A DNA stretch of 64,000 nucleotides from Acetobacteraceae bacterium (lineage in GTDB: Bacteria; Bacillota; Sulfobacillia; JAIMBG01), in contig JAIMBG010000001.1 in NCBI GenBank assembly GCA_023511555.1, positions 961 to 64,960 of the forward strand. The letters run 5' to 3'. Position 1 is the stretch's first letter. The number at the start of each line of letters is the position of its first letter. Of this stretch, positions 6,140-58,261 are shown one piece after another. Both the position numbers and the translations under genes were made by a program. Under the pieces are notes generated by a model. The model saw nothing but the letters and a program-made list of their open reading frames with translations. It did no database searches and had not been told where the DNA came from.

Positions 6140-6144
6140 AGAGG

Positions 6145-7044: not shown

Positions 7045-7052
7045 CGGTCGCG

Positions 7053-8084: not shown

Positions 8085-8102
8085 GGGGGCGATTGGTCGC
8101 GA

Positions 8103-9021: not shown

Positions 9022-9071
9022 GCGTCCGTGGGGCGGGTGATCCAGTTCCCCATGGTGAGGAGGGGTGAGGA

Positions 9072-20953: not shown

Positions 20954-20959
20954 CGGGGC

Positions 20960-21985: not shown

Positions 21986-22043
21986 CGCTCTCACTACCTC
22001 TATTAAGGGGTGGCTCTATGCGAAGCGGGGGCTAACTATCAGG

Positions 22044-22073
22044 CCCCGCACGCGCCTTGCGGCGCGCGCGGGG
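22044..22073 (-). other. Very stable GC hairpin (13-bp stem, GCAA loop) after the small ORF; candidate stabilizer/attenuator, no U-tract
   Basis: Minus-strand CCCCGCGCGCGCC-GCAA-GGCGCGTGCGGGG, 13 pairs with one G·U, starting 10 nt after the TAG of the 25-codon ORF. Confidence 0.35.
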
Positions 22074-22082
22074 AGCCGCGGC

Positions 22083-22160
22083 CTACATCAGCTTGCACGA
22101 CAAGGTAAGCTCCTTGAAGAGCTCCACCTTGGCGCACAGAGGCTTGACATAAGCCTTCAA
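22083..22160 (-). CDS. Candidate 25-aa precursor peptide, PqqA-like (MKAYVKPLCAKVELFKELTLSCKLM), TTG start
   Basis: TTG start 6 nt after a strong AAGGGAGGTG SD and 19 nt after the PqqD-like stop. Not in the ORF track (below its length cutoff). Resembles PqqA in the KP…E-x-T-L motif; a stable hairpin follows. Confidence 0.3.
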   Translation of the reverse strand: MKAYVKPLCAKVELFKELTLSCKLM

Positions 22161-22179
22161 CGGGTTCACCTCCCTTCTT

Positions 22180-22470
22180 TTAGGCGGGCGTCCCGCCCGA
22201 GAGCTGGACAAGGCCCCTCTCGAGCAGGACGCCTATGAGCTCTTTCACGTCTGCCTCGGCCGTCGCCGGGTCGCACTCAAACCCGGCGCAGATCTCCCTG
22301 ACCATGTCGGCGACAGTCGACTTGCTGTCTGCCAGCTCCCAGACCACGGCCGCCGTCGCGTTAAGCTGGTAGTAAGACTCGTTCTCCGGGTCCATGAGCA
22401 CAATGTCGTCGCCCACGTTGGTCCAGCGGATCCTCTCCGTCCGGGTCAGCACCGTGTTGGAATCAATCAT
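22180..22470 (-). CDS. PqqD-family protein (RiPP recognition element-like peptide chaperone)
   Basis: 96 aa; …WTNVGDDIVLMDPENESYYQLNATAAVVWELADSKSTVADMVREICAGFECDPATAEADVKELIGVLLERGLV is the PqqD/RRE pattern. GGAGGGAG RBS. Confidence 0.75.
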   Translation of the reverse strand: MIDSNTVLTRTERIRWTNVGDDIVLMDPENESYYQLNATAAVVWELADSKSTVADMVREICAGFECDPATAEADVKELIGVLLERGLVQLSGGTPA

Positions 22471-22489
22471 GCCCCGCCTCTCCCTCCGG

Positions 22490-23566: not shown

Positions 23567-24545
23567 GGGGGCTGCCCACCTCCCAGCTCAGGATCTCGTT
23601 GACTCGCCTTCCGGCGGCCGTGATGTGGAGCGAGGCGCGGTACTTGTCCGGGGTGAGGTGAAAGCAGGCTATCATCTGCCGGATCTCCTCCAGAAGGGCG
23701 TAGATAGCGCTGCGGCGGGGCCAGGACGCCGTCGCCGGCCGTCGTCTGCGGAAGGCCCGCTCCACCAGGGGATAAAAGTCGCCCCAGTTGGTGAACCCCG
23801 CCAGCTCTACGTCGGCATCGGCGAACTGCGCGTGCTCCAGGTCTATGACCCCCACGATGCTGGTCTGGCCGGGAGGTCCGTCGACCATGACGTTGGACAT
23901 GTTGGCCAGGTTGCCGTGGACGAAGGCCGGGCGGATCTCGGGGTCGTCGATGGCCCGGGCCGCGATCTCCTTGAGCTTGAGCAGCCTGTCCGCCGGTACC
24001 CCGGCCACAAAGCCCAGGTAGTTCAGGCGCAGAAACCCCCGCTCCCGGAAGAACGATGCCCAGGTGGGGAAGCCCTGCAGCAGCCCGCGATGATCGATCC
24101 AGCCGAACAGCGGCGCCTCGATCTCGGCCAGGTCGGCCAGCAGCTCCCCCATCTTCCCGGCCAGGCGCTCCCGCTCCGCGACGGTAAGCGTGTCCCAGGC
24201 CAGGTGGAGGGGCGTGCCCGGCATCTTCTCCATGAGCACGTATGCCCTGCCGGCGGCGCCCGCCTCCCCCGAGGCCCCATGGACCCGGGGCACCCGCACC
24301 CGGGACATCCCCAGCACCAGGCGGCTGAGGTGGGGTTCCTTGAGGAGCTGCTGTTGGTTCTCCAGCCGGGCATTCTCCGGCGCCACCTTCATGATGTAGG
24401 TGCCGGCGGTGCACTCCACCTCGTAGACCGTGTTGCAGCGGCCGCCCCCCAGCTCCTTCACCCCGGTGAGCTCACCGCCGAGGTGCCGTTCCACCGCCCG
24501 CCGGATAACGTCCCGGTCCACTTCGGCCTTCAGCGTGGACTCCAC
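23556..24545 (-). CDS. Phosphotransferase-family kinase (APH/choline-kinase-like fold)
   Basis: GTG 24545 after an AGGAGG RBS. N-lobe …ELGGGRCNTVYEVECTAGTYIMKV…, Brenner-like HGNLANMSNVMV, DxxxxN-type …VIDLEHAQFAD… Maximal ORF to 24770 is an antisense extension. Confidence 0.7.
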   Translation of the reverse strand: MESTLKAEVDRDVIRRAVERHLGGELTGVKELGGGRCNTVYEVECTAGTYIMKVAPENARLENQQQLLKEPHLSRLVLGMSRVRVPRVHGASGEAGAAGRAYVLMEKMPGTPLHLAWDTLTVAERERLAGKMGELLADLAEIEAPLFGWIDHRGLLQGFPTWASFFRERGFLRLNYLGFVAGVPADRLLKLKEIAARAIDDPEIRPAFVHGNLANMSNVMVDGPPGQTSIVGVIDLEHAQFADADVELAGFTNWGDFYPLVERAFRRRRPATASWPRRSAIYALLEEIRQMIACFHLTPDKYRASLHITAAGRRVNEILSWEVGSPHEQ

Positions 24546-24577
24546 GCCGCCACCCCTCCTAAGCCGGGGAGATCGCT

Positions 24578-25996
24578 CTAGGAGGCCAACACCAGTTGCG
24601 GAGCCGCCTCTCTCCACGCCCTGTCCCGGTCGAATCGCACATATAGCCCCTGGGGGTCGAAGTCCGCCGGCGGATGGCCCCCGTGGCAGAAGAAGAGGTA
24701 GAGGAAAAGGTCGGCGGTGAACCTCTGCAGCCTGTCGGGATAGAGCCACCTCAGCGGGTGGCTGTCCCACTCCACCCCCGGGAGCGCGGCGACGGCCCCG
24801 GCCACCGCCGCCCTGAGCCCCGCAGCGGCGTCGGGCAGGCCCACCTTGTTGCGGGATGCCACCGCCTCACCCAGGCCTCCGGGGAGCAGGGCCCGCACCA
24901 GGTCACGCAGGGGCCGCTTGGTGACCCCGCCGCGCACCAGTTCCCCGGGCGTCTGAGCCAGGGCGTAGTCGATCACCTGGGGGTCGAGGTAGGGAAAGGC
25001 CACCGGGGTGGGAGCCGCCTCCACGCGGGCGGTCCGCAGGTGAAGGTGGGGCAGCCGCTCGGTGAGGTTCATCCAGTAGAGCGCCCGGAACAGATCGGCG
25101 TTGCCCAGCCGCTCCCACTCCCCGATGCGGGCAGCCACCTCAGAGGCGCCTGGCACCTCGCCCCCCCGCGCCCGTAATAGGGCGTCCAGCCGCCGTCTCA
25201 GCCCCTCCACGTACAGCCGGGGGTGGGGGTAGATCCACCAGTACCCCGCGAAGAGTTCGTCAGCACCCTCGCCGCACAGCACCACCGGGACGGTGCCACG
25301 GACGGCGCCGCAGGCGGCCGCCACGCTGCCGGTCAGTATGCGGGGCGAGGCTATGAGCCGCACTACCTGGCACCACCTGTCCAGCGGGGAGCCGGCCGGC
25401 TCCACCATGACCTCCAGGCCCTGGATCACCAAATGCTGGCACACCCGGCGGGCCATGCCGCGGTCGGCCCGGCTGGACTCATCGCCGGATATGGCAGTGA
25501 CCGCCACCAGCGGCACGCTTGCCACCCGCGCCGCCCGGCGGGCCAGGACGGCCAAAAGCGTGGAGTCGACCCCGCCGGACAGCAGCACCGCTCCCCCGCC
25601 GTAGATTGCGGCCGAGACGGCGTTGTACAGCCTCGCCTCCAGGCCGGGTCCGTCGCCCCTTTCCGGAGCTGGGGGCGGGGGCGGCACTGACACTTCGACC
25701 TCCAGCCGCCCCCAGGGCGCAAACCGCGCCCTCACTGAGCCCCCCGGAGGCACCTGGCGCACGGCGCGGAAGACGGTGCGGGTCCCAGTGGGAAAGCCGA
25801 GGACGGCCTCCTCCACCAGCGCCGCGGAGTCCAGCCTGCGGTCCACGGCGGGATCAGCCAGGATCGCCGCCATCTCGTCGGCCCAGAGCAGGGTGCGGCC
25901 GTCACAGGTCAGAGCATAGTACAGCGCGTCCTGCCCGAACCAGCTTCGGGTCAAGACCAGCTCGCCGTCGCCCGAAAAGCGGCCCGCCCGGTTCAT
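24578..25996 (-). CDS. Asparagine synthetase (AsnB) C-terminal-domain homolog lacking the glutaminase domain; candidate ATP-dependent amide/lactam synthetase
   Basis: PP-loop LLSGGVDSTLLAVL and AsnB motif CGEGADELFAGYWW. N-terminus MNRAGRFSG… (ATG 25996) has no Cys2 nucleophile and only ~110 aa precede the PP-loop. Maximal ORF to 26419 is an antisense artefact. Confidence 0.7.
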   Translation of the reverse strand: MNRAGRFSGDGELVLTRSWFGQDALYYALTCDGRTLLWADEMAAILADPAVDRRLDSAALVEEAVLGFPTGTRTVFRAVRQVPPGGSVRARFAPWGRLEVEVSVPPPPPAPERGDGPGLEARLYNAVSAAIYGGGAVLLSGGVDSTLLAVLARRAARVASVPLVAVTAISGDESSRADRGMARRVCQHLVIQGLEVMVEPAGSPLDRWCQVVRLIASPRILTGSVAAACGAVRGTVPVVLCGEGADELFAGYWWIYPHPRLYVEGLRRRLDALLRARGGEVPGASEVAARIGEWERLGNADLFRALYWMNLTERLPHLHLRTARVEAAPTPVAFPYLDPQVIDYALAQTPGELVRGGVTKRPLRDLVRALLPGGLGEAVASRNKVGLPDAAAGLRAAVAGAVAALPGVEWDSHPLRWLYPDRLQRFTADLFLYLFFCHGGHPPADFDPQGLYVRFDRDRAWREAAPQLVLAS

Positions 25997-27808: not shown

Positions 27809-29386
27809 TCATCCCTCCATGCCTGACCGGGCCGGGGCCCGGCCCCATCTCCACCGGTGAGCGTTCCAGGTGACCGGCGTCTGCGACGACCCGCCTGGCC
27901 GGAAGTTCAGCAGCCCCACCCGGTGGGCCGAGACCTCGATGCGGTGGTACAGCGGGAGCGAAGGGAGGTCCCGGGCGAACAGCTCCTGCTGTCGGTGCAG
28001 GAGCTCCCACCGCCGCCGCTCGTCGAACTCCTCCTCGGCCCGGGCCAAAAGCTCGTCCACCTCCGGGTTCCGCCAGCCGGCGAAGTTGTGGCCGGAGTAC
28101 CCGTTTTCCGGGCCGGGCACCTGCTGGGAGTGCCAGGCGCCGCGCCCGATGGTGTCGGGGTGCATGAGCCAGGCGTAGAGCAGCAGATCGAACTCCCGCC
28201 GGCGCGCAAACTCCCCAAACACCCGGCGGGGCTCGTCCTCTCGGACCTCCACGGCGGCGCCGAACGCCCTCCACTGCTCCTTTAGCTCCGCCGCCGCCCT
28301 TATCCTCGCCGGATCCCCGGCGGTGGTGGTGATGGTGAACGAAAGCGGCTTCCCGTCTCCGTCCGCCCAGGTCCCGTCCCGGAACTCGAACCCGCAGCCC
28401 TTAAGCAGCTCGGCCGCGCGGCGGGCGTCGCCGCCGGGAAGGCGCTGGGCCTTGTACCCGCGGTGCCTTTCCGGAAGCCAGGAATCGGCGAGCCGGCCTT
28501 TGCCCCCGGTCGCCGCCGCCACCACCCGGGAGCGGTCCACGGCCCAGGCGAGGGCGTGCCTTACCTCGCGCCGGCCCAGGTGGGGGTGGTCGAGGTTGAA
28601 GTCGATGCGTTCCACGGCCAGAGACGGCGTGAAGTGGACGCACACCCGCCCCCGGCCCGCCTCGGCCAGCCGGGCGGCCTGGCCCAGGGTAAGGTTGTTG
28701 GTGGCCATTACGTCAAGGTCGCCCCGGAGCAGCGCCGCCGCCATCTCCTCCGGGTCGGGGATGAACCGGAACGACAGCCCGTCCAGGGGCGGCCGTCCCT
28801 CGCAGAAGTCGGGCACGGCGGAAAGGTCTATGCGGTCCTTTGGCCTCCACTCCACGAAGCGGAAGGGGCCGGTGGTGAGCGGCCGCTTGCCGAACTCCAG
28901 CAGGTGGAATCCGGCCGGGTCCTTGAGGTACGCCGGCTCGAGCACGTGCCGGGGGAGCATCAGGTAGTAGTGATTGGCCGTCGCCAGCCGGCGCTTCCAG
29001 GTGACCACCAGGGTATACGGGTCGGGGCACTGCATGTCCTCGATCTGGGGGTCGTACCAGCGCGAGTCTATCTGCACCCTGGGGTCCATCCTCAGCCGCC
29101 AGGTCCAGACTGCGTCCTGGGTGGTGAGGGGCACCCCGTCGTGCCAGCGGTAGCCGCGCTTCCAGTGGTAGGTGATGCGCATGCCGCCGCCGGGCAGGAA
29201 CTCCCACCCCCGCCCTGGGGTGGGGATGCGCCGGAGCACCCGGGGGTGGGCCCGGCCGCGGTCATCGTAGTGCAGCGGCCGGGTGGTCATGGCCCCCAGG
29301 ATGTCCGCGGCCGAGGCCATGGCCTGCATACCGGGGAACAGGCTGTCCGGTTCCTGGCTGAGCCCTATCCTGGCCAGCCCGCCCAT
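27809..29386 (-). CDS. Solute-binding protein family 5 (DppA/OppA-like) paralog without a signal peptide
   Basis: SBP_bac_5 architecture throughout. N-terminus MGGLARIGLSQEPDSLFPG… has no hydrophobic signal or lipobox, and the upstream gene leaves no room for one. Confidence 0.75.
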   Translation of the reverse strand: MGGLARIGLSQEPDSLFPGMQAMASAADILGAMTTRPLHYDDRGRAHPRVLRRIPTPGRGWEFLPGGGMRITYHWKRGYRWHDGVPLTTQDAVWTWRLRMDPRVQIDSRWYDPQIEDMQCPDPYTLVVTWKRRLATANHYYLMLPRHVLEPAYLKDPAGFHLLEFGKRPLTTGPFRFVEWRPKDRIDLSAVPDFCEGRPPLDGLSFRFIPDPEEMAAALLRGDLDVMATNNLTLGQAARLAEAGRGRVCVHFTPSLAVERIDFNLDHPHLGRREVRHALAWAVDRSRVVAAATGGKGRLADSWLPERHRGYKAQRLPGGDARRAAELLKGCGFEFRDGTWADGDGKPLSFTITTTAGDPARIRAAAELKEQWRAFGAAVEVREDEPRRVFGEFARRREFDLLLYAWLMHPDTIGRGAWHSQQVPGPENGYSGHNFAGWRNPEVDELLARAEEEFDERRRWELLHRQQELFARDLPSLPLYHRIEVSAHRVGLLNFRPGGSSQTPVTWNAHRWRWGRAPARSGMEG

Positions 29387-29407
29387 GTCTTCAGCCCTCC
29401 CGTGCCC

Positions 29408-31042
29408 TCAGCTCCCCCACCGCCAGGTGTGCGCGTTCCAGGGGAGGTAGGTCCCCGAGAGCCCCACCGGCCTGACCCCAAGCAGGCTGCGCTTTGAGGT
29501 CTGGAGGTGGATGCGGAAGTAAAGGGGGAGGGAGGGGAGGTCGGCGGCGAACTGCTCCTGCTGCCGGTGGAACAGCTCGATCCGCTTCGCGGTGTCAAGC
29601 TCCCGCAGGACCGCGGCGATGAGGCGGTCGTTCTCCGCGCTGCGCCAGCCGCAGAAGTTCTGGCCGGTGTAGTTGTTATCCGGGGACGGTATCTGGCTGG
29701 AGTGCCACAGCCCGAAGCCCGGGGCGGTGGGGCTCATCACCCACGACAGCATGACCAGTTGGAACTGCCTTTTGCGCAGCCGGTCGGCGATAAGCACCTG
29801 GGCCGGCAGCTCCTCCAGCTTCAGCTCGATGCCGGCCCGGGCCAGGTCCTCTGTCATGGCGGCCGCGATTCGCCGCCGGAGCTGGTTTCCGGCGGTGGTG
29901 GACAGCGTGAGGGTGAGCCTCTCGCCGCCGGCGTTCCGGCGGATGCCGTCGGGGCCGCGGCGCCAGCCGGCCTGGTCCAGGAGCTGCGAAGCGCGGTCGG
30001 GCTCGTACTCGTACCGCGGAACGCCGGGGTGGAAAGCGTAGTATCTTTCGCCCAGCCAGGTGTGGGCCACGTTCACCCGGCCCCGGAACTCGCGCTTGAC
30101 CGCGGCCTCGCGGTTGAACGCATGGAGCAGCGCCCGCCGCACCCGGACGTCGGAGAGCACCGGGTCGTCGAGGTTGACGTCGATGTGCTCCCACTCGATG
30201 GCCGGGCTGTAGTGGGTGGCGACAAAGTCGCCCGCCGCCTCCTCTATCTCCGCCATGTCCTCCAGGGAGAAGTTGTTGAGCTCGGTGCAGTCCACCTCGC
30301 CCGCGATCTGGGCCCTCTTCAGCGAGGCGGCGTCGGGGTAGAAGCGGTAGACCAGCCGCTTTATCGTGGCCGGACCCTCCACGAAGTCTTCCACCGCCCG
30401 GACGCTCAGCTCCTCCCCGCGCCTCCAGTAGTCGAAGCGGTAGGGGCCGTTGCCCATCGGGTGGTCCCAGAGGGGGACCTGGTCGAGCCTGTCCCTTCCC
30501 TTGAGCAGCGGCTCATAGACCCTGCGGGGTACGAACGACGCCCCATATGCGGCGCCGAAGAACAGGTCGGCGTGAGGCAGCCGCTCTTTCCAGTGGACGT
30601 CGAACTCCAGGTCGTTCTTCACCACGATGCTTTCTATCTTGGCCTCTATCCACCGGGTAACGATGGGCAGCCGGGGGTCGAGGCAGAACTGCCAGCCGTA
30701 GAGCACGTCGTCGGCCGTCACCGGGGTGCCGTCGTGCCACTTGTAGCCGGGACGGAGGCGGTAGTGCATTATCATCCGGTCTCCGTGGACCTCCCAGGAG
30801 CCGTCCTCCAGGGAGGGGAGCTTCTCGGCCACGCGGGCGTATGGCTTCCAGTCGTCGTTCCACTCGATGAGCGCGCAGAACATGGTGTTCATCACCGCTC
30901 CGGCGGCCACCGTGCTCTGCCCCTTTATGGCCATCCCGTCGGGCTCCTGCGCCATCCCGATGACCACCGTCTTTTCGTCTATCACCGGGCCCTTTATGGG
31001 CATCCGCCTCATCCCTCCCTCGGTTCTTCGGACCACACCCAC
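29408..31042 (-). CDS. Solute-binding protein family 5 paralog without a signal peptide
   Basis: Paralog of the neighbouring genes (…IGMAQEPDGMAIKG…). No signal peptide; overlaps the upstream paralog's 3' end. Confidence 0.75.
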   Translation of the reverse strand: MGVVRRTEGGMRRMPIKGPVIDEKTVVIGMAQEPDGMAIKGQSTVAAGAVMNTMFCALIEWNDDWKPYARVAEKLPSLEDGSWEVHGDRMIMHYRLRPGYKWHDGTPVTADDVLYGWQFCLDPRLPIVTRWIEAKIESIVVKNDLEFDVHWKERLPHADLFFGAAYGASFVPRRVYEPLLKGRDRLDQVPLWDHPMGNGPYRFDYWRRGEELSVRAVEDFVEGPATIKRLVYRFYPDAASLKRAQIAGEVDCTELNNFSLEDMAEIEEAAGDFVATHYSPAIEWEHIDVNLDDPVLSDVRVRRALLHAFNREAAVKREFRGRVNVAHTWLGERYYAFHPGVPRYEYEPDRASQLLDQAGWRRGPDGIRRNAGGERLTLTLSTTAGNQLRRRIAAAMTEDLARAGIELKLEELPAQVLIADRLRKRQFQLVMLSWVMSPTAPGFGLWHSSQIPSPDNNYTGQNFCGWRSAENDRLIAAVLRELDTAKRIELFHRQQEQFAADLPSLPLYFRIHLQTSKRSLLGVRPVGLSGTYLPWNAHTWRWGS

Positions 31043-32595
31043 TCCTGCGCGTTCCAGGTGACCGGCCCCACCGACATCCCGGTGGGACGGATGCCTTTCA
31101 GACCGCGGCGGTGGGCCACCACCTCCGCCCTCATGAGCAGCGGAAGGCAGGGCAGGTCGCGGGCGAAGACCGCCTGCTGCTCCCGCATCACCGCCGCCCG
31201 GCGGTCGTCGTCCAGCTCTCGCAGCCCCCGGGACAGCAGGGCGTCGTTTTCCGCGCTCCGCCAGCCGGGGTAGTTGCGGCCCTGCCAGGCGTTCTGGGGG
31301 CTGGGGACCTGAGACGAGTGCCAGGCCCCGAACCCCATGGCGTGAAGGTGCATCACCCAGGAGTACATGGCCAGGTGCTCGAACCGCCGCCGCGGCAGAA
31401 GCTCGGTAAACAGTTCCCGGGCCGGGACCCAGCCGGTCTCGCAGGCCACGCCTATCTCCCGCCAGGCCGAGACCAGCCCCTCGGCCAGCCGCTCCCTGAG
31501 CTTGTCGCCCGCGGTGGTAAGCAGCCGCAGCGGGCTCTTGCCGGCGGGGATGAGCCGTCCGGAGCGCTCCTCCCAGCCCGCCTCGAGCAGCAGCGACCGC
31601 GCCCTCCCGGGGTCGCGCCCCAGAGCCCTGAGCACCGGGTCGTGGTCGGGATGCCCGGTGGGCAGCCAGCTCGTCGCCACCTGGAGCCGGCCCGCCGACG
31701 CCTGCCGCACCAGCTCCTCCCGGTCCACCGCCAGGGCCAGGCCCAGCCGGGCCCGGGGGTCGGAGAGCGCCGGGGAGTCGCAGTTGAAGTCCAGCCTTTC
31801 CACGATGAGCGCGGGCTTGTAAACGAATCTGAACTCCGGAAAGGCGTCCTCCAGGTCCAGAACCTCGTCAAGCGACATCGACGCGCCCGAGACCACGTCG
31901 ACCTCGCCCCGTCGCCAGCCCGCGACGAGCTCCTCCGGCCCCGGGTAGAAGCGGAAGACTATCCGCTCCGCCGCCCGGCCCCGGGCGGGGGGCGGGGGCG
32001 GCGCCATGCGGACCACCTCGATGAACTCCCCTGGAACCCAGCGGGAGAACCGGAACGGACCCATGCCCACCGGGCTCCGGGCGAAGGGAAGCCGCGGGAG
32101 CGAGGTGGGGTCCCTGTCGAAAGCCTCCGCCAGGAGGTGGCGGGGCAGCGCCCGGTGGCACATGTTGGCGTTGGGGGTCATCTCACTCCAGTCGACCACC
32201 AGGGTGAGGGGGTCCGGGCAGTGCATCCCGGCCACCTTGACGTCGTCGGACTTCGTCACCACGGACTTTACGGCGGGGTGCGTCCACATCCGCCATGTCC
32301 ACTCGACGTCGTAGGCCTGGAGCGGATGCCCGTCGTGCCACCGCACCCCCGGCCGGATGCGGTAGGTGAGCCGCATGCGGCCGTCGGGGAACACCTCCCA
32401 GTCGCCGCCCGATACCGAAGGGATGCGCTCCACCCAGGTGGGGAAAGGCCGCCAGTCGTCGCCGTACTGCACCGGCCGGGTGTAGAGCGTCGCCAGCACC
32501 AGCCCCGAGGCGTAAAGCGGCGTAAACGCCAGCAGCAGGTTGTCCGGCTCCTGCGTCACCCCGATGACCACCGTGCCCTCGTCACCGCGACCCAT
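31009..32595 (-). CDS. Solute-binding protein family 5 paralog without a signal peptide
   Basis: MGRGDEGTVVIGVTQEPDNLLLAF…; starts 22 nt after the 5'-nucleotidase stop; no signal peptide. Confidence 0.75.
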   Translation of the reverse strand: MGRGDEGTVVIGVTQEPDNLLLAFTPLYASGLVLATLYTRPVQYGDDWRPFPTWVERIPSVSGGDWEVFPDGRMRLTYRIRPGVRWHDGHPLQAYDVEWTWRMWTHPAVKSVVTKSDDVKVAGMHCPDPLTLVVDWSEMTPNANMCHRALPRHLLAEAFDRDPTSLPRLPFARSPVGMGPFRFSRWVPGEFIEVVRMAPPPPPARGRAAERIVFRFYPGPEELVAGWRRGEVDVVSGASMSLDEVLDLEDAFPEFRFVYKPALIVERLDFNCDSPALSDPRARLGLALAVDREELVRQASAGRLQVATSWLPTGHPDHDPVLRALGRDPGRARSLLLEAGWEERSGRLIPAGKSPLRLLTTAGDKLRERLAEGLVSAWREIGVACETGWVPARELFTELLPRRRFEHLAMYSWVMHLHAMGFGAWHSSQVPSPQNAWQGRNYPGWRSAENDALLSRGLRELDDDRRAAVMREQQAVFARDLPCLPLLMRAEVVAHRRGLKGIRPTGMSVGPVTWNAQEWVWSEEPREG

Positions 32596-39729: not shown

Positions 39730-40029
39730 TTGCACGGCGGCAACGGCGAGGATCGGGAGCGTCGCCCGTTGAAGGTGGAGGTGCCGGCCGACCTCAGGCC
39801 TTCTCCTGCGAACTTCTTGGGGGTTTCCCACACGCCGTACGACTTCATCCTCGACTTCGCGGAAGTGATTCCTGTGGGGGACCAGCCGAGGGCCCAGGTC
39901 GTGGCCCGCATCGTGATCAGCCCGCAGTTCGTCCACCGCATGGTGGAGACCCTCCAGCACAACCTGGCCAAGTACGAGCAGACCTTCGGACCGATAAAGC
40001 GGCCAGCGCTGCCCGGCCGGGAGGGCTGA
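39730..40029 (+). CDS. DUF3467-family small protein
   Basis: …SHTPYDFILDFAEVIPVGDQPRAQVVARIVISPQFVHRMVETLQHNLAKYEQTFGPIK matches my recollection of DUF3467. TTG start. Confidence 0.6.
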   Translation: MHGGNGEDRERRPLKVEVPADLRPSPANFLGVSHTPYDFILDFAEVIPVGDQPRAQVVARIVISPQFVHRMVETLQHNLAKYEQTFGPIKRPALPGREG

Positions 40030-43544: not shown

Positions 43545-43745
43545 AATATCCGGAGGAGGGTGGCGGGAGAGTCCCCCGGGCCGGTCGGGGGCGCCGAAGG
43601 AGCAAGGCCGCGGTGAGAGGCCGAAACTCTCAGGCAAAAGTACCGCTGCCGGACGGGCCTCTGGAGAGGGCCCCAACCGAGGGGCCGCCCAAGGGGTAAC
43701 TTCCCCCCGGGAAGGAATCTCTCTGGTCAAAGGACAGAGGAGAAG
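43545..43745 (+). promoter_or_regulatory. Tandem glycine riboswitch (two aptamers) in the gcvT leader
   Basis: Aptamer 1: GGGAGAG…CCGAAGGAGCAA…CTCTCAGGCAAAAG. Aptamer 2: CTGGAGAG…CCCAAGGGGTAA…CTCTCTGGTCAAAGGACAG. Consensus glycine-aptamer cores, directly upstream of the gcv operon. Confidence 0.8.
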
Positions 43746-43790
43746 CGGAGGGGACCCGGTCCCAGCGTCTCCGTTTGTCCTTGTTTTTGT
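43746..43790 (+). terminator. Riboswitch expression-platform terminator (nested GC hairpin plus U-rich tract)
   Basis: GCGGAG-GGGACCCGGTCCC-…-TCTCCG followed by TTTGTCCTTGTTTTTGT. Fits a glycine-ON transcriptional switch as in B. subtilis gcvT. Confidence 0.45.
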
Positions 43791-43878
43791 GGGTGGGAGC
43801 CGGCGGGGCTGAGCCCGGCGGGCGGGGCCTACGTGGCGGGCGGCCGAGTGCGAGCGGAACCGGGAAGGAGGTGCCGGG

Positions 43879-44994
43879 TTGGAGGGGTTGGAGAAGCTCA
43901 AGAAAACCCCGCTGTTTGACTGCCACCTCAAGGCGGGGGGCAAGATCATCGACTTCGGGGGGTGGGCGCTGCCGGTACAGTACACCGGCATCCTGGAGGA
44001 GCACCACTGCGTGAGGCAGCGGGCGGGGCTGTTCGACGTGTCCCACATGGGAGAGGTCCGGGTGGAGGGCAGGGGAGCGCTCCGGTACCTCCAGCACCTC
44101 GTGGCCAACGACGTGTCGCGGCTTTCGCCGGGCCAGATATGCTACGCCCACATGCTTTACCCCAACGGAGGGACGGTCGACGACCTCCTGGTGTACCGGC
44201 TGGCGGAGCAGGAGTTCTTCATCGTCATCAACGCCGCCAACACCGCCAAGGACGTGGCCTGGATGCAGAAGGTAGCCCTGGACTTCAGGGACGTCAAGGT
44301 CTACGACCTCTCGGCGGCCACCGCGGAGCTGGCGCTCCAGGGCCCCCTGGCCGCGTCCATCCTGCAGAGGCTCACCTCCGCGGACCTCAGCAAGATCCGC
44401 TACTACTGGTGCCAGCGGGGGCTAAAGGTGGCCGGCCTGCTGTGCCTGGTCTCCCGCACCGGCTACACCGGCGAGGATGGGTTCGAGATCTTCGTGGAGC
44501 CTGAGAACGCGCCGGCGTTGTGGGAGGCGCTGCTGCAGGCGGGCAGGCCCGAGGGGCTCAGGCCCGTAGGACTCGGCGCGCGGGACAGCCTGCGGTTTGA
44601 GGCCTGCATGCCGCTTTACGGCCAGGAGCTGGACGCCGACACCAGCCCGCTTGAGGCCGGGCTGGAGCGCTATGTGGCGTTTGACAAGCCGGACTTCATC
44701 GGCAAGGCGGGGCTGCTGGAGCGCAGGCAGGCGGGGCTTAAGAAGCGGCTGGTGGGGTTTGAGATGGTGGACAGGGGCATAGCCCGCTCCCACTACCGCA
44801 TCCTCAAAGGCGCCACCGAGGTGGGCTACGTCACCAGCGGCATGTATTCGCCCACGCTGGCCAGGAACCTGGGGCTGGGCTACGTCCCGCCCGAGATGGC
44901 CGGGGTCGGCTCCGAGTTCCACGTCGAGGTGAGGGGCCAGGGGCTCTTGGCCCGGGCCGTCCCCACCCCGTTCTACCGCAGGAGTCGGCGGTAG
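43879..44994 (+). CDS. gcvT: Glycine cleavage system T protein (aminomethyltransferase)
   Basis: …KTPLFDCHLKAGGKIIDFGGWALPVQY…AGLFDVSHMGEVRVEG… is the GcvT signature. TTG start after GGAAGGAGGTG. Confidence 0.9.
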   Translation: MEGLEKLKKTPLFDCHLKAGGKIIDFGGWALPVQYTGILEEHHCVRQRAGLFDVSHMGEVRVEGRGALRYLQHLVANDVSRLSPGQICYAHMLYPNGGTVDDLLVYRLAEQEFFIVINAANTAKDVAWMQKVALDFRDVKVYDLSAATAELALQGPLAASILQRLTSADLSKIRYYWCQRGLKVAGLLCLVSRTGYTGEDGFEIFVEPENAPALWEALLQAGRPEGLRPVGLGARDSLRFEACMPLYGQELDADTSPLEAGLERYVAFDKPDFIGKAGLLERRQAGLKKRLVGFEMVDRGIARSHYRILKGATEVGYVTSGMYSPTLARNLGLGYVPPEMAGVGSEFHVEVRGQGLLARAVPTPFYRRSRR

Positions 44995-45136
44995 CGGCCC
45001 CCGCCGTGCCCGGCCCCGCGCGCCGCCAGTCCGCGGGCAGCCGCGGCGGCGGGGCCGCGAACCAGGGCTGCCCCGACCCAACGCGGACCGCCGGGGGCCT
45101 CAGGTTTCGGAACCAGTTACTTAAGGAGGTTGGGCC

Positions 45137-45523
45137 ATGTATCCCGAGGACCTCAAGTACACCAAGACCCATGAGTGGATCAGGCTTGAGGGCAACAGGG
45201 GCCGGGTGGGCCTCACCCACTACGCCCAGGACCAGCTCGGCGACATCGTGTTCGTCGAGCTTCCTGCCGTGGGCAAGGTGGTCAAGCAGGGCGAGACCTT
45301 CGGGGTGGTGGAGTCGGTGAAGGCTGCCTCCGACTGCTACGCTCCCCTGAGCGGCAAGGTGGTGGAGGTGAACAGCCGGCTCACCGACGAGCCTGCGACC
45401 ATCAACCAGGACTGCTACGGCCAGGGCTGGATGATGGTGCTGGAGGTGTCCGACCCGTCTGAGGTGGGCAAGCTCATGGATGCGGCCCGGTACCAGGAGT
45501 ACCTGAAAGAGGTCGGTCACTGA
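45137..45523 (+). CDS. gcvH: Glycine cleavage system H protein (lipoyl carrier)
   Basis: …THEWIRLEG…GDIVFVELP…ESVKAASD… lipoyl-lysine motif. Confidence 0.9.
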   Translation: MYPEDLKYTKTHEWIRLEGNRGRVGLTHYAQDQLGDIVFVELPAVGKVVKQGETFGVVESVKAASDCYAPLSGKVVEVNSRLTDEPATINQDCYGQGWMMVLEVSDPSEVGKLMDAARYQEYLKEVGH

Positions 45524-46865
45524 TGATGAAGTACCTGCCGCACACCGACCGGGACCGGGAGGCGATGCTGAAGACCATCGGGGTTAAGTCCGTAGACGAG
45601 CTCTTCTCCGACATCCCCGCCCAGGTCCGGTTCAACCGGGCGCTCGACCTGCCCCGGCCGCTCAGCGACCCTGAGCTGGCCAGGCACATGGGCGAGCTGG
45701 CCTCGCGCAACCGCTCGCTGGACGGGCTGACCTGCTTTCTCGGCGGCGGGGTCTACGACCACTTCGTGCCCAGCGTGGTCGAGCACATAGTGTCGCGCAG
45801 CGAGTTTTATACCGCCTACACCCCCTACCAGGCCGAGGCCAGCCAGGGGGTGCTGCAGTCGATATACGAGTATCAGACCCTGATCTGCGAGCTCACCGGC
45901 ATGGACGTGTCGCAGGCGTCGATGTACGACGGGGCGTCGGCGGCGGCCGAGGCCGGGCTGATCTGCGCCGCCACCCTGGGTCGGGGGCGCATAGTGGTCC
46001 CGGCGAGCCTCCACCCCGAGTATCGGCAGACCATAAAGACCTACGCCTGGGCGCACGACCTGGAGGTGGCCGAGGTCCCGTTCGGGCCCCAGGGGACCGC
46101 CGACCTGAGCCGCCTGGAGGCTGCGCTGGGCCCGGAGCCGGCCTGCCTCATCGTCCAGCACCCCAACTTCTTCGGGGCGCTCGAGCCGGTGGAGGAGATG
46201 GGGCGGCTGGTGCACGCCCGGGGGGGGCTGCTGGTGGCGGCCTGCGACCCCATATCGCTCGGGGTGCTCAAGCCCCCCGCAGCGTATGGCGCCGACATCG
46301 CCCTGGGCGAGGGCCAGCCGCTCGGCATTCGGCTCAGCTTCGGCGGGCCCTACCTGGGGTTCTTCGCCACCTCCGAGAAGCTGGTGCGGCGCATGCCCGG
46401 CCGCATCGCCGGCGCCACCCTGGACCACCAGGGGCGCCGGGGCTTCGTGCTGGCCCTGCAGACCCGCGAGCAGCACATCCGCCGGGAGAAGGCGACCTCC
46501 AACATCTGCTCCAACGAGGCGCTGTGCGCGCTTGCGGCCACGGTCTACCTCTGCGCCTTGGGCAGGCGGGGGATTGTGAAGCTAGCCGGGCTGTGCCTTC
46601 AGAAGGCGCACTACGCCCGGGATCAGGTGGCGCGCCTGGAGCGGTTCAAGCCGGCGTTCGACGCGCCGTTTTTCAGGGAGTTCGCGGTGCGCTCCACCCT
46701 GCCCTGGGAGAGGGTCGAGTCCGGCCTGCTCCAGCAGGGGCAGGCGGTGGGGCCTTCCCTGGGGCGGTTCTACCCCGAGCTTAAGGACTGCTTCCTCCTG
46801 GCGTTCACCGAAAAGCGCACCCGGGAGGAGATCGACTACCTGGTGGGGCGGATGGAGGGATTGAT

Positions 46866-46869
<4 letters not shown>
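45523..46869 (+). CDS. gcvPA: Glycine dehydrogenase (decarboxylating) subunit 1
   Basis: GcvPA signature sequence; start overlaps the gcvH stop (TGATG). Confidence 0.9.
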
Positions 46870-48353
<1,484 letters not shown>

Positions 48354-48379: not shown

Positions 48380-49231
48380 GTGGCCCGGGAGCCGGGCCGC
48401 ATCCGGGCGTTCAACCCCCGGCGGACGCTGGCGGTGAGCGTCACCGGCCGGGGGTGTGCGCTCCGCTGCCGGCACTGCGGGGGGCGGTACCTAAAGGGCA
48501 TGGCCGACCTGGGGCGGGCCAGGCGGCTCCTGCTGGGCCCGCCCTGGCCGCGGCCCTTCCGTCCCGTGCGGTTTTGGAGCCTGCTAGTCAGCGGCGGCTC
48601 GGATCTTTCCGGCCGGGTTCCGCTCGCCGACCACCTCGGGGACCTGGAGGTGTTTCGGGCGCTGGGGCTAAGGCTCAACCTCCACACCGGCCTGGTGGGC
48701 CCGGAGGAGGCGGCTGGGCTGGGCCCCCTGGCGTCCGCAGTATCGCTCGACTTCGTGGGCTCGGCGGAGGTCGCCCGCGAGGTGTACGGGCTCAACGCAG
48801 GCCCCCGGGAGTCTATCGCCGCGCTGCGGGCGCTTAAGCCCTTCGCCCGGGTGGTGCCGCACCTCTGCCTGGGGCTTAAGGGCGGGGAGCCGTCGGCGGA
48901 GGAGGAGGCCCTGGAGCTGCTCTCCTGTGAGGGGGTGGAAGCCCTGGTGCTGCTGGTGTTCACCCCCACCCCGGGCACCGACTACTCTGGCCGCCTCCCG
49001 CCGCCGCTTCCGCGGGTGGAGGCGCTCTTCCGGCTGGCGCGGGAGCTCCTTCCCCGGGCGGCGGTCTACCTGGGCTGCATGAGGCCCGGGGGCGGGTACC
49101 GCCGGGAGCTGGACCGGGCCGCGGTCCGGGCCGGCTTGGACGGGGTGGTGCTCCCGGCGGCCGAGGCGCTGGAGGAGGCCCTGGCGCTGGGACTTGAGGT
49201 CTCCTGGGGAGAGGAGTGCTGCGCCCTGTGA
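48380..49231 (+). CDS. Radical SAM protein, candidate LipS1/LipS2-type lipoyl synthase subunit
   Basis: CALRCRHC (CxxxCxxC) at residues ~25-32 from GTG 48380. Sits between gcvPB and lplA. The maximal ORF (48143) overlaps gcvPB. Confidence 0.55.
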   Translation: MAREPGRIRAFNPRRTLAVSVTGRGCALRCRHCGGRYLKGMADLGRARRLLLGPPWPRPFRPVRFWSLLVSGGSDLSGRVPLADHLGDLEVFRALGLRLNLHTGLVGPEEAAGLGPLASAVSLDFVGSAEVAREVYGLNAGPRESIAALRALKPFARVVPHLCLGLKGGEPSAEEEALELLSCEGVEALVLLVFTPTPGTDYSGRLPPPLPRVEALFRLARELLPRAAVYLGCMRPGGGYRRELDRAAVRAGLDGVVLPAAEALEEALALGLEVSWGEECCAL

Positions 49232-50316
49232 TCCGGGTTTCTCTGGGGACCGCGGCGGTGCTGGGCCTTTCCCCGGCCAGGGTCGACGCCCCGCCCCGCA
49301 CCGCCTACATCCTCTGCGGCCAGGGCTGCGCCCTGGACTGCGGGTTCTGCCCCCAGGCGCGGTCCAGCCGGTCGCCCCGGGGCCTGCTGTCGCGGGTCAC
49401 CTGGCCGGAGGCCCGCCTGGAGGAGGTAGTGCCCCGGCTGGCGGAGGCCGCCTCGAGGGGGCTGGTCGGCCGCGCCTGCCTCCAGGTGGTGGAGGGGGAG
49501 GAGGGCCGGAGCGAGGCCCGGCGGGCGCTTTCGGCCCTATCTGAGGCGGCCCGCCTTCCCGTCTCGGTCTCGGCGGCGTTCGCCGGCCCGCAGCCAGCGA
49601 AGGAGTGGATCCGCCTGGGCGCCGAGAGGGTGGGCATACCCCTCGACGGCGCCAGCCCGGCTGCGTTCCGGCTGGCGAGGGGAGGGGACTTCTGCCGGGC
49701 CCTGGCCCGGGTGGAGGCCGCGGCCCGGGCCTGCCCGGGGCGGGTGAGCACCCACCTCATCGTGGGGCTGGGGGAGACCGACGAGGAACTGGTGCGGCTT
49801 CTGGCCCGACTGACCGCGCAGGGGATCGCCGTGGGGCTGTTTGCGTTCACCCCGGTCAGAGGCACCCGGCTGGAGCGCCTCCCTCCGCCACCCCTCAAGC
49901 GCTACCGGCGGCTGCAGGCTGCCCACCACCTCCTGCGGCTTGTGCCCCAGGCGCTTTCGGGCCTGCGCTTCGACGGGCGGGGAAGGCTCGTGGGCTGGGG
50001 CCTCAGCCGCAAAGAGCTTGAGGCCCTGCTCTCCCCCGGGGATGCCTTCCTCACCGCAGGCTGCCCCGACTGCAACCGCCCCTACTACAACGAGCGGCCG
50101 CAGGGCCCCATCTATAACTACCCGCGGCCACTGTCGCCCCGGGAGGCTGCGGCAGCCGTGGCGCTGGCGCTCGCGCCGGCTGCCGGGGATGGCGCCGGGG
50201 AAGAGGCCCTCGAGGGCGCGGGCGACGGCGGTGGGGAGGGCGCCGGGGGTGGCGCCGAGCCGGACGGCGCCGGCGACGAGTGCCGGCCGGAGGAAGCTGC
50301 GGGCGGGGGGAGTTGA
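49216..50316 (+). CDS. Radical SAM protein, candidate LipS1/LipS2-type lipoyl synthase subunit
   Basis: CALDCGFC (CxxxCxxC) near the N-terminus; biotin/lipoyl-synthase-like TIM-barrel region. A second Cys cluster (…TAGCPDCNRPYYNE…) could hold an auxiliary cluster. Acidic Gly/Ala-rich C-terminal tail. Confidence 0.55.
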   Translation: MLRPVIRVSLGTAAVLGLSPARVDAPPRTAYILCGQGCALDCGFCPQARSSRSPRGLLSRVTWPEARLEEVVPRLAEAASRGLVGRACLQVVEGEEGRSEARRALSALSEAARLPVSVSAAFAGPQPAKEWIRLGAERVGIPLDGASPAAFRLARGGDFCRALARVEAAARACPGRVSTHLIVGLGETDEELVRLLARLTAQGIAVGLFAFTPVRGTRLERLPPPPLKRYRRLQAAHHLLRLVPQALSGLRFDGRGRLVGWGLSRKELEALLSPGDAFLTAGCPDCNRPYYNERPQGPIYNYPRPLSPREAAAAVALALAPAAGDGAGEEALEGAGDGGGEGAGGGAEPDGAGDECRPEEAAGGGS

Positions 50317-50321: not shown

Positions 50322-51155
50322 GTGCAGTGGCGGCTCATTCTCTCGGGGCCGGCCGACGGCCCGACCAACATGGCGGTGGACGAGGCGCTGCTGGGCTCCT
50401 GCGGCGGGGGCCAGTCCCCTCCCACCCTGCGCTTTTACACCTGGTCGCCGGCCACCGCGTCGGTGGGCCGGTTTCAGGACCTGCAGGAGGAGGTAGACCT
50501 CGAGGCCTGCCGCGCCATGGGGATAGGCTGGGTGAGACGGCCCACCGGCGGCCGCATGGTGCTTCACGACCGGGAGCTCACCTACAGCCTGGCCGCGCCG
50601 CGGGCGCTGTTCCCGGCCGGCGTAGTGGACTCCTACCTGGCCATCAGCCGGGGGCTGGTGGAGGGGCTCCGGCTCCTGGGTGTGGACGCCCGGGCCGCCT
50701 CCCCTCCCCAGGGCCGGGCGTCGCTGGCCGGGGCCTGCTTCGACACCCCCTCCTGGTACGAGGTGACGGTGGGTCAGAGGAAGGTGGTGGGCAGCGCCCA
50801 GGTGCGGAGCGGCGGGGGGCTTCTGCAGCACGGCTCGGTGCTGCTAGAGTTTGACGCCTCAAGACTGGTCCGCGTGCTGGCGCCGGGGCGGAGGGGCCCC
50901 GACCCCGAGGCCCTGGCGGAGTTCCTGGGCCGGCGGGCGACGGGGCTGTGGCAGGCGGCGGGGCGGCGGCTTTCTCCCTCCGAGGTGGCCCAGGCCCTGG
51001 CGGAGGGGTTCGCCAGGGCCCTGGGGGTCAGGCTCGTGGAGGGCGGGCTTTCCCCGGCCGAGGCGGAGCGTGCCGAAAGGCTCAAGCGGCAGAAGTATCT
51101 CAGCCCGGAGTGGAACCTGAGGCCGGCTCCCAGGCCGGCGCGGGGGGAGGGGTGA
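50322..51155 (+). CDS. lplA: Lipoate-protein ligase / octanoyltransferase (BPL/LPL catalytic domain)
   Basis: …WRLILSGPADGPTNMAVDEALL… matches the LplA N-terminus; …GRKVVGSAQ… conserved Lys region. GTG 50322 is 5 nt after the upstream stop. Confidence 0.75.
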   Translation: MQWRLILSGPADGPTNMAVDEALLGSCGGGQSPPTLRFYTWSPATASVGRFQDLQEEVDLEACRAMGIGWVRRPTGGRMVLHDRELTYSLAAPRALFPAGVVDSYLAISRGLVEGLRLLGVDARAASPPQGRASLAGACFDTPSWYEVTVGQRKVVGSAQVRSGGGLLQHGSVLLEFDASRLVRVLAPGRRGPDPEALAEFLGRRATGLWQAAGRRLSPSEVAQALAEGFARALGVRLVEGGLSPAEAERAERLKRQKYLSPEWNLRPAPRPARGEG

Positions 51156-52558
51156 GGGTGTACGACCTGGTGGTGGTGGGGAGCGGGCCCGGCGGGTATG
51201 TGGCCGCCATCCGCGCCGCCCACCGGGGGGCGAAGGTGGCCCTGGTGGAGAAGGCGCAGATCGGCGGCACCTGCCTCAACCGGGGCTGCATACCCACCAA
51301 GGCCCTGGTCAGGAGCGCGGAGATATACGGCAACGTGAGGCGGGCCCAGGAGTTCGGGGTGAGGGTGGAGGGGGTGGGGTTCGACTTCGGCCGGGTCATG
51401 GCCCGCAAGCGCCAGGTGGTCCAGCGCCTGGTGGGCGGGGTGGAGTACCTGCTTAAGGCCAACGGCGTGGAGGTCTTCCGGGGGAAGGCGCGAGTGCCCC
51501 GGCCGGGCCTGGTGGAGGTGGAGCTGCCCGACGGCACGGCCCCGCTTGAGACCCGGAACGTCATCCTGGCCACGGGGTCGGCGCATGCCCTGCCCCCGCT
51601 CCCGCCCGAGAGCATCGCGCTCTGCATCTCCAGCGACCAGGCCCTGGAGCTGGACCGGCCCCCCGAGTCCCTGGTGGTGATCGGCGGAGGGGTACTGGGG
51701 GTCGAGTTCGCCTGCATCTATGCCGCGTTCGGCGCCCGGGCGCAGATAGTCAAGCGCACCCCTCTGGTCCTGCCGCCGATGGACGACGAGATATCCCAGC
51801 GCATAGCGCCGCTGCTCAAGAAGGCCAACATCACCGTCACCAGCGGGGTATTCGTAAAGCGGGTGGAGAAGACCTCGGCGGGGCTCGTGCTCCTGGCCGA
51901 CCTCAAGGAGGGCGGCGAGGCGCGGTTTGAGGGCGAGGCCATACTCATCGCCATGGGCCGGGTCCCCGACTTCGGCGGCATCGACCTGGACGCGCTGGGG
52001 GTGGCCTATGACCGGCGGGGGATAAAGGTGGACGCCCGCATGCGCACCAGCGTGCCCGGCATCTACGCCGTCGGCGACGTGGTGGGCCGCTACTACCTGG
52101 CGTCGGTAGCCTCGGCCGAGGGTATTGCGGCGGTGGACGACATCTGCGGCCACGGCCGCGACATGGACTACGCCGCCGTGCCGCAGTGCGTGTTCTCCAG
52201 CCCCGAGGCGGCCGGCGTGGGGCTCAAGGAGAGGGAGGCCAGGGAGCGGGGGATTGAGCTGGTGGTGTCCAGGTTTCCATATGCCGCCAACGGTAAGGCC
52301 CTGGCCCTGGGCGAGACCGATGGCCTGGTGAAGGTGGTAGCGAAGGCCCAGGACAGGAAGCTGCTGGGGGTGCACCTCCTGGGGGCCCGCGCCACCGACC
52401 TCATCCACGAGGCGGCCCTGGCCATCAAGCTGGGCGCCACCGCCCACGATCTGGCGGCGCTCATCCACGCCCACCCCACGCTCTCTGAGACCATCATGGA
52501 GGCGGCGCACGGCGCCTCTCACCTCTCTATCCACCAGGCCCCACCGCGACGGGGGTGA
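51152..52558 (+). CDS. lpdA: Dihydrolipoyl dehydrogenase (L-protein/E3)
   Basis: FAD motif YDLVVVGSGPGGY, redox-active disulfide GGTCLNRGCIPTK, C-terminal HAHPTLSE. Confidence 0.9.
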   Translation: MRVYDLVVVGSGPGGYVAAIRAAHRGAKVALVEKAQIGGTCLNRGCIPTKALVRSAEIYGNVRRAQEFGVRVEGVGFDFGRVMARKRQVVQRLVGGVEYLLKANGVEVFRGKARVPRPGLVEVELPDGTAPLETRNVILATGSAHALPPLPPESIALCISSDQALELDRPPESLVVIGGGVLGVEFACIYAAFGARAQIVKRTPLVLPPMDDEISQRIAPLLKKANITVTSGVFVKRVEKTSAGLVLLADLKEGGEARFEGEAILIAMGRVPDFGGIDLDALGVAYDRRGIKVDARMRTSVPGIYAVGDVVGRYYLASVASAEGIAAVDDICGHGRDMDYAAVPQCVFSSPEAAGVGLKEREARERGIELVVSRFPYAANGKALALGETDGLVKVVAKAQDRKLLGVHLLGARATDLIHEAALAIKLGATAHDLAALIHAHPTLSETIMEAAHGASHLSIHQAPPRRG

Positions 52559-57760: not shown

Positions 57761-58261
57761 GGAAGGCTGGGGGCGTGTCCTTCCACAGCGGCCCCGTGGC
57801 GGAGGCCGTCGACCCGGCATAGCCCCGCTCCCGTTCAAAGAAGCAGCCGGGAGCCAAACGGACTCCCGGCTGTCGCTTAACGTACCCACGGAGGGCCGAC
57901 CCCTCTTCTTCCCCCGTTCCCATCTGCCCTGAACCAGCCGGGCGTTTCGGGTCAACCGGTCTGGGCCCGGCCATCTGAGCCGCTCGAAAGCGCACCGCTG
58001 TCAGCCTGGCCACGGACCGTTGCTGGAGCAACGGCTGCGACTGCGGCGGCCGTGAAGCGGAGAGCGGGGACAAACCCTCAGCTTCCCCCTCCCGGTGGCA
58101 TGATTTGGCGTCGGCCCCAATATGCTTAGAAGGAAACCGCAGGTCAGCCTGGGGGAGGGTGGCCCGTGGGGGACAGGGGCCGGCAGCCGCAGGGGAACGC
58201 CATCGCGGATATTCCCGCCGGGGACGGTGCTTTTTCAGCGCCGGGGGCTGCGGAGTCTCCG

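Follow-up and report, generated by a model that had tools for sequence, protein, structure and literature searches.

Putative LipS1/LipS2 lipoyl synthase genes within a probable glycine cleavage operon behind a tandem glycine riboswitch in a Bacillota genome

Results

The DNA analyzed here (the window) is a stretch of 64,000 nucleotides (nt) with a G+C content of 72%, taken from positions 961 to 64,960 of contig JAIMBG010000001.1 (GenBank assembly GCA_023511555.1), and this report concerns two adjoining genes on its + strand whose reading as the known two-protein lipoyl synthase, LipS1/LipS2, is supported by sequence comparison. Both belong to a string of genes delineated from a mechanical listing of open reading frames (ORFs) together with codon-position G+C. 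The first, lipS1 (48380–49231), begins with a GTG codon at 48380 and encodes 283 amino acids (aa); the second, lipS2 (49216–50316), starts at 49216 and encodes 366 aa, and an alternative GTG at 49228 overlaps the lipS1 stop codon as GTGA. Each product carries the CxxxCxxC signature of radical S-adenosylmethionine (SAM) enzymes, as CALRCRHC in LipS1 (Cys26/30/33) and CALDCGFC in LipS2 (Cys38/42/45), and in a six-frame scan this pattern occurred in credible window genes only in these two. An earlier note on this DNA, written from the letters alone, had described two consecutive radical-SAM genes with these motifs, and the ORF coordinates and motifs bear it out.

Equivalog models of NCBIfam with curated cut-offs were used to identify the two products. 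LipS1 scored 230.7 bits against the LipS1 model NF053742 (cut-off 230), covering profile positions 4–268 of 268, which is a marginal match, whereas LipS2 scored 326.7 bits against the LipS2 model NF053743 (cut-off 270) over positions 1–292 of 292. The Thermococcus kodakarensis sequences for direct comparison came from supplementary material of Neti et al. 2022, a machine-read text in which residue numbering drifts by 1–2 positions. Over their full lengths, the window LipS1 is 29% identical to TK2109 (LipS1; E 3e-32) and the window LipS2 is 39% identical to TK2248 (LipS2; E 7e-63), while the two window proteins are barely alike in mutual comparison. The earlier note had called the pair a probable two-component lipoyl synthase and had pointed to TK2109 and TK2248 as the proteins to compare; both the family scores and this full-length similarity agree with its proposal.

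The residues that hold the iron–sulfur clusters provide a further line of evidence. In the Thermococcus proteins, mutagenesis assigned C27/31/34 of LipS1 to the radical-SAM cluster and C230, C276, C277, and probably H159 to an auxiliary [4Fe-4S] cluster, and C39/43/46 of LipS2 to the radical-SAM cluster and C85, C276, and C279 to its auxiliary cluster (PMC9585515). In the window LipS1, Cys26/30/33, His161, Cys233 (within GCMRP), and Cys280/281 (within a C-terminal ECC) align to the Thermococcus residues, and all of them are kept in 83 of 83 homologues. The counterparts in LipS2 are Cys38/42/45, Cys88 (within RACLQ), and Cys283/286 (GCPDCNRPYYNERP); Cys38/42/45, Cys88, and His180 are kept in 72 of 72 homologues and Cys283/286 in 70 of 72. 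The auxiliary-cluster cysteines that the earlier note had singled out for inspection are thus present and conserved.

LipS1 was also modeled by AlphaFold from a 32-sequence alignment, which yielded a confident structure (predicted local distance difference test score, pLDDT, 94.8; predicted template modeling score, pTM, 0.92). Its nearest folds in the PDB by Foldseek were BioB (8VDW and 1R30), HydE, and PylB, with LipA outside the top 50, and this position beside BioB agrees with the literature, which places LipS proteins near BioB (PMC9585515, PMC10332631). Neither LipS1 nor LipS2 matched a solved relative when the PDB was searched by sequence. Beyond its conserved YNYP region, LipS2 carries an Ala/Gly/Glu-rich, low-complexity tail of ~61 residues (approximately residues 306–366, encoded at 50131–50316), the longest among 67 homologues, whose tails span 10–43 residues. 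The public record calls the window LipS1 a 'hypothetical protein'.

Other lipoyl synthase and sulfur-insertion families were considered and rejected. LipS2 scored 16.8 bits against the LipA model TIGR00510 (cut-off 310) and 32.8 bits against the BioB model TIGR00433 (cut-off 225), and LipS1 matched neither; membership in another radical-SAM family, which would have spoken against the LipS1/LipS2 proposal, is therefore not indicated by these scores, which lie far under the cut-offs. Neither LipS protein, nor any credible ORF in the window, contains the Cx4Cx5C or RSSY motifs of LipA, and no lipoyl-synthase or radical-SAM family was found among the 40 other window ORFs scanned against Pfam, in line with the earlier statement that the window holds no canonical lipA.

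The gene that follows lipS2 (50322–51155, +) encodes a single-domain, 277-aa protein of the lipoate-ligase family in which Pfam recognizes PF21948 (131 bits) and PF03099 (54 bits) and no other domain. The Bacillus subtilis LipM sequence used for comparison was obtained by a database query with a LipM sequence, the matches being named 'octanoyltransferase LipM [Bacillus subtilis]' at 99–100% identity. The window transferase is 42% identical to it over the full length (211 bits, E 2e-72), and its Cys139 and Lys154, both invariant in 25 diverse homologues, align to Cys150 and Lys165 of LipM. Both LipM residues reportedly have catalytic roles, as Christensen and Cronan are said to have described in 2010. 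Similarity falls to 79 bits for Thermoplasma acidophilum LplA, which has no Cys at the position equivalent to Cys139, to 39 bits for Escherichia coli LplA, and to 14.5 bits for PDB 2P5I, which we take to be a LipL-like structure. Matches to the NCBIfam models LplA_large (103.5 bits, cut-off 480) and LplAB (97.8 bits, cut-off 550) were weak, and neither an LplB accessory domain nor a separate lplB-like gene was found in the operon. The gene thus likely encodes an octanoyltransferase of the LipM type, with a small remaining probability that its product is a ligase, and octanoyl-acyl carrier protein (ACP) would serve as its acyl donor. The NCBI record names the product a 'lipoate--protein ligase family protein'.

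The remaining genes of the string, all on the + strand, were named by family scores. Ahead of the radical-SAM pair lie gcvT (43879–44994; aminomethyltransferase, T protein; NF001567, 448 bits, cut-off 300), gcvH (45137–45523; lipoyl carrier, H protein; NF002270, 179 bits, cut-off 117), gcvPA (45523–46869; glycine dehydrogenase subunit 1; NF001696, 622 bits, cut-off 364), and gcvPB (46866–48353; glycine dehydrogenase subunit 2; NF003346, 779 bits, cut-off 441). The motif ESVKA of GcvH holds the presumed lipoyl-lysine. Behind the transferase gene lies lpdA (51158–52558; dihydrolipoyl dehydrogenase, L protein; TIGR01350, 520 bits, cut-off 408.8). Spacing is tight: from gcvH to lpdA it ranges from overlaps up to 26 nt, the transferase start given by NCBI is a TTG at 50313 that overlaps the lipS2 stop, and the GTG start of lpdA lies 2 nt past the stop of the transferase gene. 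The only sizeable gap within the operon, 142 nt between gcvT and gcvH (44995–45136), contains no Rfam family and no terminator-like site, and a simple promoter and terminator scan gave no signal above chance and no intrinsic terminator within the operon. Because the genes are packed or overlapping and the scan placed no above-chance intrinsic terminator between them, they are read as one operon, in which the whole set would be co-transcribed.

Upstream of gcvT, Rfam (RF00504, gathering score 32) identified two tandem glycine riboswitch aptamers on the + strand, 139 nt from the gene: aptamer 1 at 43554–43655 (64.4 bits, full model 1–94) and aptamer 2 at 43658–43740 (48 bits). They are followed by a terminator-like hairpin with a U-tract (43732–43789, +), which runs into TTGTTTTTG and whose 5' arm shares sequence with the 3' end of aptamer 2; the 71-nt stretch containing it (43725–43795) folds at -30.8 kcal/mol (z = -2.75). 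The hairpin and U-tract would constitute the expression platform of a transcriptional ON switch, and the operon would accordingly be induced by glycine. The flanking genes and the riboswitch ahead of them stand where the earlier note had placed them, and its view of a unit joining the glycine cleavage proteins, their lipoylation genes, and lpdA is upheld by the scores and order of the eight genes.

Conservation of the locus was examined in a set with a single genome for each prokaryotic species, in which at least 588 LipS1-encoding stretches were found. The best 80 of these were examined; LipS1 identity among them reached 51% at most, and the window's own genome was not included. Of these 80 loci, 65 contain a gcv gene, so an absence of the LipS genes from gcv contexts in relatives, which the earlier note had named as damaging to its proposal, was not found. 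Among loci with enough sequence, gcvPB lies immediately upstream of lipS1 in 46 of 70; lipS2 is immediately downstream of lipS1 in 65 of 73, and lipM is next after lipS2 in 49 of 59. Most hosts belong to the Bacillota (Syntrophomonadaceae, Desulforudis, Desulfosporosinus, Desulfofundulus, Pelosinus, Dethiobacter, and Thermincola), and Chloroflexota carry the arrangements lipS1-lipS2-gcvT-H-PA-PB or lipS1-lipS2-lipM-gcvH-PA-PB. Beyond the identical public record, the closest LipS1 relative is 56% identical and comes from metagenomic contigs that carry these eight genes in an identical order. A gene order that recurs in dozens of independent genomes is therefore not a chance arrangement. All 7 of the Bacillota relatives that were tested carry a glycine riboswitch ahead of gcvT, and none was found ahead of lipS1 in 8 of 8 Chloroflexota-type loci (lipS1-lipS2-gcvT...) or in the Thermincola locus L017.

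Several variants of the locus were observed. In one Bacillota metagenome-assembled genome (MAG; locus L072), lipS1 (8674–9468) and lipS2 (17714–18667) lie ~8 kb apart in an operon whose order is otherwise unchanged, a separation that may reflect an insertion between the two genes. In the Thermincola loci L017 and L062 the module is shorter (gcvH-lipS1-lipS2-lipM-lpdA) and neither gcvT nor gcvP precedes it, and in L017 (4319–4403, 9525–13994) a cyclic di-GMP (c-di-GMP-I) riboswitch lies ~5 kb upstream of gcvH. The window (39730–40029) and its closest relative, L001 (1368–1667), each have a DUF3467 gene a few kilobases ahead of the gcv operon, and synteny therefore reaches beyond the operon. L001 also has a thiamine pyrophosphate (TPP) riboswitch ahead of a thiamine transporter gene.

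Elsewhere in the window, spoIIIAA, spoIIIAC/AD, and spoIIIAE are found downstream of efp (58166–62100). Together with the split gcvPA/PB and the glycine riboswitch, the spoIII genes mark a sporulating, 72% G+C member of the Bacillota. The public proteins identical to those of the window are labeled 'MAG: Acetobacteraceae bacterium' (K6T75_00220); because these three features indicate Bacillota, the label looks wrong, or the contig looks mis-binned. On the - strand, an unusual cluster (17629–24770) contains, in order, a phosphotransferase (APH)-like gene (23556–24770), a QueA-like Queuosine_synth gene (22490–23566), a gene for a 96-aa protein of the PqqD type, a recognition element of ribosomally synthesized and post-translationally modified peptides (RiPPs; 22180–22470), a second QueA-like gene (20960–21994), and two large ORFs with no Pfam match (19700–20953 and 17629–19644). 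The placement of QueA paralogues on either side of a PqqD-like protein suggests a peptide-modification cluster. The window further encodes a Tad/Flp pilus assembly cluster, an ATP-binding cassette (ABC) transporter of the branched-chain-amino-acid type, and three tandem paralogues of family-5 solute-binding proteins, in regions at 2573–9683 (+), 9845–14488 (-), and 27809–32595 (-).

Discussion

The region very probably represents a self-contained operon for an active, lipoylated glycine cleavage system, in which a riboswitch precedes the genes for the T, H, PA, and PB proteins, LipS1, LipS2, a LipM-type transferase, and LpdA. A plausible course of events can be proposed on the basis of characterized relatives. 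When glycine is present, the tandem riboswitch with its terminator-like platform would switch transcription on. LipM would take octanoate from octanoyl-ACP onto Cys139 as a thioester and pass it to the lipoyl-lysine of GcvH. LipS2 would then use a 5'-deoxyadenosyl radical and sulfur from its sacrificial auxiliary [4Fe-4S] cluster to form 8-mercaptooctanoyl-GcvH, and LipS1 would afterwards insert sulfur at C6 to yield lipoyl-GcvH, which LpdA, as the L protein, would re-oxidize from its dihydrolipoyl form. Insertion at C8 and then at C6 has been established for the Thermococcus pair (PMC9585515), and the window proteins would follow the same order, with LipS2 acting at C8 and LipS1 at C6.

Several points weigh against this interpretation. 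LipS1 passes its curated cut-off by just 0.7 bits, and at E <= 0.01 it matched no Pfam family, the Radical_SAM model included; its assignment therefore relied on NCBIfam, direct comparison, and the structure model. The narrow margin also means that divergent LipS1 proteins such as this one are likely missed by automatic annotation. The simple consensus scan for terminators gave no call at the riboswitch hairpin. The functions of the window proteins would be those of characterized orthologues, and the hand-over from LipM to LipS1/S2 is likewise presented in the literature only by implication (PMC10332631). Finally, a canonical lipA may lie elsewhere in the genome: 42 of the 106 Firmicutes genomes that carry LipS1 and LipS2 in the survey of Tanabe 2023 also carry LipA (S4 Table, PMC10332631).

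The radical-SAM pair could instead be members of a different BioB-like family of sulfur-insertion enzymes or maturases, such as biotin synthase, HydE, or PylB-like proteins, with the gcv genes adjacent by coincidence. The predicted LipS1 fold, which is nearest to BioB and HydE, and the weak bioB match of LipS2 would fit such an origin, and the T. kodakarensis LipS proteins were themselves formerly annotated as biotin synthases (PMC9585515). Yet the bioB score of 32.8 bits falls far below its cut-off of 225, whereas the LipS equivalog cut-offs are reached, and both proteins carry LipS-specific auxiliary patterns (GCMRP and the C-terminal ECC in LipS1; GCPxCNRPYYNERP in LipS2). Moreover, the linkage of the lipS genes to gcvH and lipM is kept across two phyla, and the Pfam-scanned parts of the window contain no biotin or hydrogenase genes. 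Taken together, these observations make a BioB-like family extremely improbable and favor LipS1/LipS2.

The transferase requires a closer weighing, as the features that would assign it to LipM are partly shared with its relatives. An ATP-dependent octanoate/lipoate:protein ligase, feeding a scavenging Lpl-LipS1/S2 pathway as in sulfur oxidizers, would agree with the NCBI product name, with the weak matches to LplA_large and LplAB, and with the closest solved structure, T. acidophilum LplA (79 bits), itself a subunit of a genuine ligase; in sulfur oxidizers, LplA-like proteins with a single domain do act as ligases and show no octanoyltransferase activity (PMC6067878). These ligases, however, are only 17–19% identical to LipM (PMC6067878), and the window protein reaches 211 bits with LipM against 79 and 39 bits with the T. 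acidophilum and E. coli LplA proteins, has an invariant Cys139 that aligns to LipM Cys150 where T. acidophilum LplA has no Cys, and scores only ~100 bits where the LplA_large and LplAB cut-offs are 480 and 550. With no LplB domain or gene in the operon, a ligase appears improbable. A LipL-type amidotransferase, which would pass lipoyl or octanoyl groups on from GcvH to E2 subunits while the octanoyl donor enzyme is encoded elsewhere, would suit a place beside gcvH. LipL is also a single-domain PF03099 protein and likewise uses a catalytic Cys150, so the cysteine alone is no proof of LipM function. The high full-length identity is to LipM itself, and the match to 2P5I, presumably the LipL-like representative, is negligible. 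In a HAMAP-based survey, 83 of 106 LipS1/S2-positive Firmicutes were LipM-positive (PMC10332631), and a LipL-type enzyme is accordingly very improbable. LipM is preferred over LipL or a ligase because overall similarity discriminates between them and the cysteine alone does not. The earlier note had left the choice between lipoate-protein ligase and octanoyltransferase open; the 42% identity to LipM favors the octanoyltransferase half of that description and speaks against an LplA-type ligase.

Two specific candidates for this gene were rejected. An sLpl(AB)/LplAB-type ligase does not fit the scores against LplAB (97.8 versus 550) and LplA_large (103.5 versus 480), and no LipT-like gene occurs in the operon. 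LipL was set aside on the full-length LipM similarity and on the 14.5 bits to 2P5I, whose LipL label is our assumption.

The kind of system described here, the combination of LipM with LipS1/S2 included, is already catalogued. The two-protein lipoyl synthase was first described by Jin 2020, as cited in PMC9585515, and the T. kodakarensis proteins were characterized by Neti 2022 (PMC9585515), whose neighborhood networks place bacterial LipS1/S2 with an H protein, a biotin/lipoate ligase-family protein, and a pyridine-nucleotide disulfide oxidoreductase. Tanabe 2023 demonstrated that LipS1/S2 function as a lipoyl synthase in bacteria and surveyed GTDB, taking a HAMAP MF_02118 score >= 130 as the criterion for LipM (PMC10332631). 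In its S4 Table, the Firmicutes genomes with LipS1 and LipS2 include 42 with LipM plus Lpl and 41 with LipM without Lpl; of the 62 such genomes in Chloroflexota, 27 carry LipA, 28 LipM plus Lpl, and 8 LipM without Lpl (PMC10332631). The text of that study names the combination of LipM with LipS1/S2 only for phyla other than Firmicutes, states the hand-over as an implication, and mentions neither a gcv operon nor a riboswitch (PMC10332631). In the literature searched, we found no paper on the layout gcvT-H-PA-PB-lipS1-lipS2-lipM-lpdA behind a glycine riboswitch, and no explicit description or experimental demonstration of LipM/LipS coupling or of glycine-riboswitch regulation of lipoylation.

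Our survey shows gcvT-H-PA-PB-lipS1-lipS2-lipM(-lpdA) to be a widespread, conserved operon with a glycine riboswitch ahead of it. We lean modestly toward a broader view, in which many anaerobic or sporulating Bacillota place lipoyl synthesis under glycine-riboswitch control by co-transcribing LipM, LipS2, and LipS1 with GcvH, and thereby gain an on-demand de novo route that is independent of LipA. As the core biochemistry is already established and holds little surprise for a specialist, the practical value lies mainly in annotation, given that the public record now lists a 'hypothetical protein' and a generic 'ligase family protein'. Correct naming indicates that the organism can probably lipoylate GcvH de novo without a classical LipA, a point that changes how glycine catabolism and one-carbon metabolism are reconstructed for uncultured Bacillota. 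The operon also offers a natural test system, both for LipM-octanoylated GcvH as the physiological substrate of LipS1/S2 and for ligand regulation of cofactor assembly together with the client enzyme.

Comparison with known systems clarifies what is shared and what differs. The sLpl(AB)-LipS1/S2 pathway likewise links the LipS pair to an acyl-loading enzyme and a carrier of the GcvH family, but the window operon contains no genes for an sLpl(AB) ligase, the LipT oxidoreductase, sHdr, or LbpA; its loader is LipM-type and its client a genuine glycine-cleavage GcvH (PMC10332631). The precedent that the earlier note had drawn from T. kodakarensis is real, although the system is not confined to Thermococcus, bacterial LipS1/S2 having been shown in 2023 (PMC10332631). 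The window proteins share with the Thermococcus pair full-length homology (29% and 39% identity), the CX3CX2C motif, and the same set of auxiliary [4Fe-4S] ligands, and both pairs are devoid of the Cx4Cx5C and RSSY motifs of LipA. They differ in that the window genes are adjacent and overlapping in a bacterium, whereas the Thermococcus genes lie >130 genes apart; the window pair lies within a gcv operon, where its partner is a LipM-type transferase in place of an archaeal LplA-LplB ligase, and its LipS2 is extended at the C-terminus by some 60 aa of low complexity.

As in the LipM-LipA-LipL relay of B. subtilis, the LipM orthologue of the window would octanoylate GcvH as the first acceptor. 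Sulfur insertion would be performed by LipS1/LipS2 instead of LipA, and the window contains no lipL. The B. subtilis lipoylation genes are scattered in the genome, whereas those of the window lie inside the gcv operon. B. subtilis also has a gcvT-gcvPA-gcvPB operon controlled by a glycine riboswitch. The window resembles it in having tandem aptamers upstream of gcvT, followed by a putative terminator-like platform that would fit an ON switch, and differs from it in that the transcript would add gcvH, the lipoylation genes, and lpdA.

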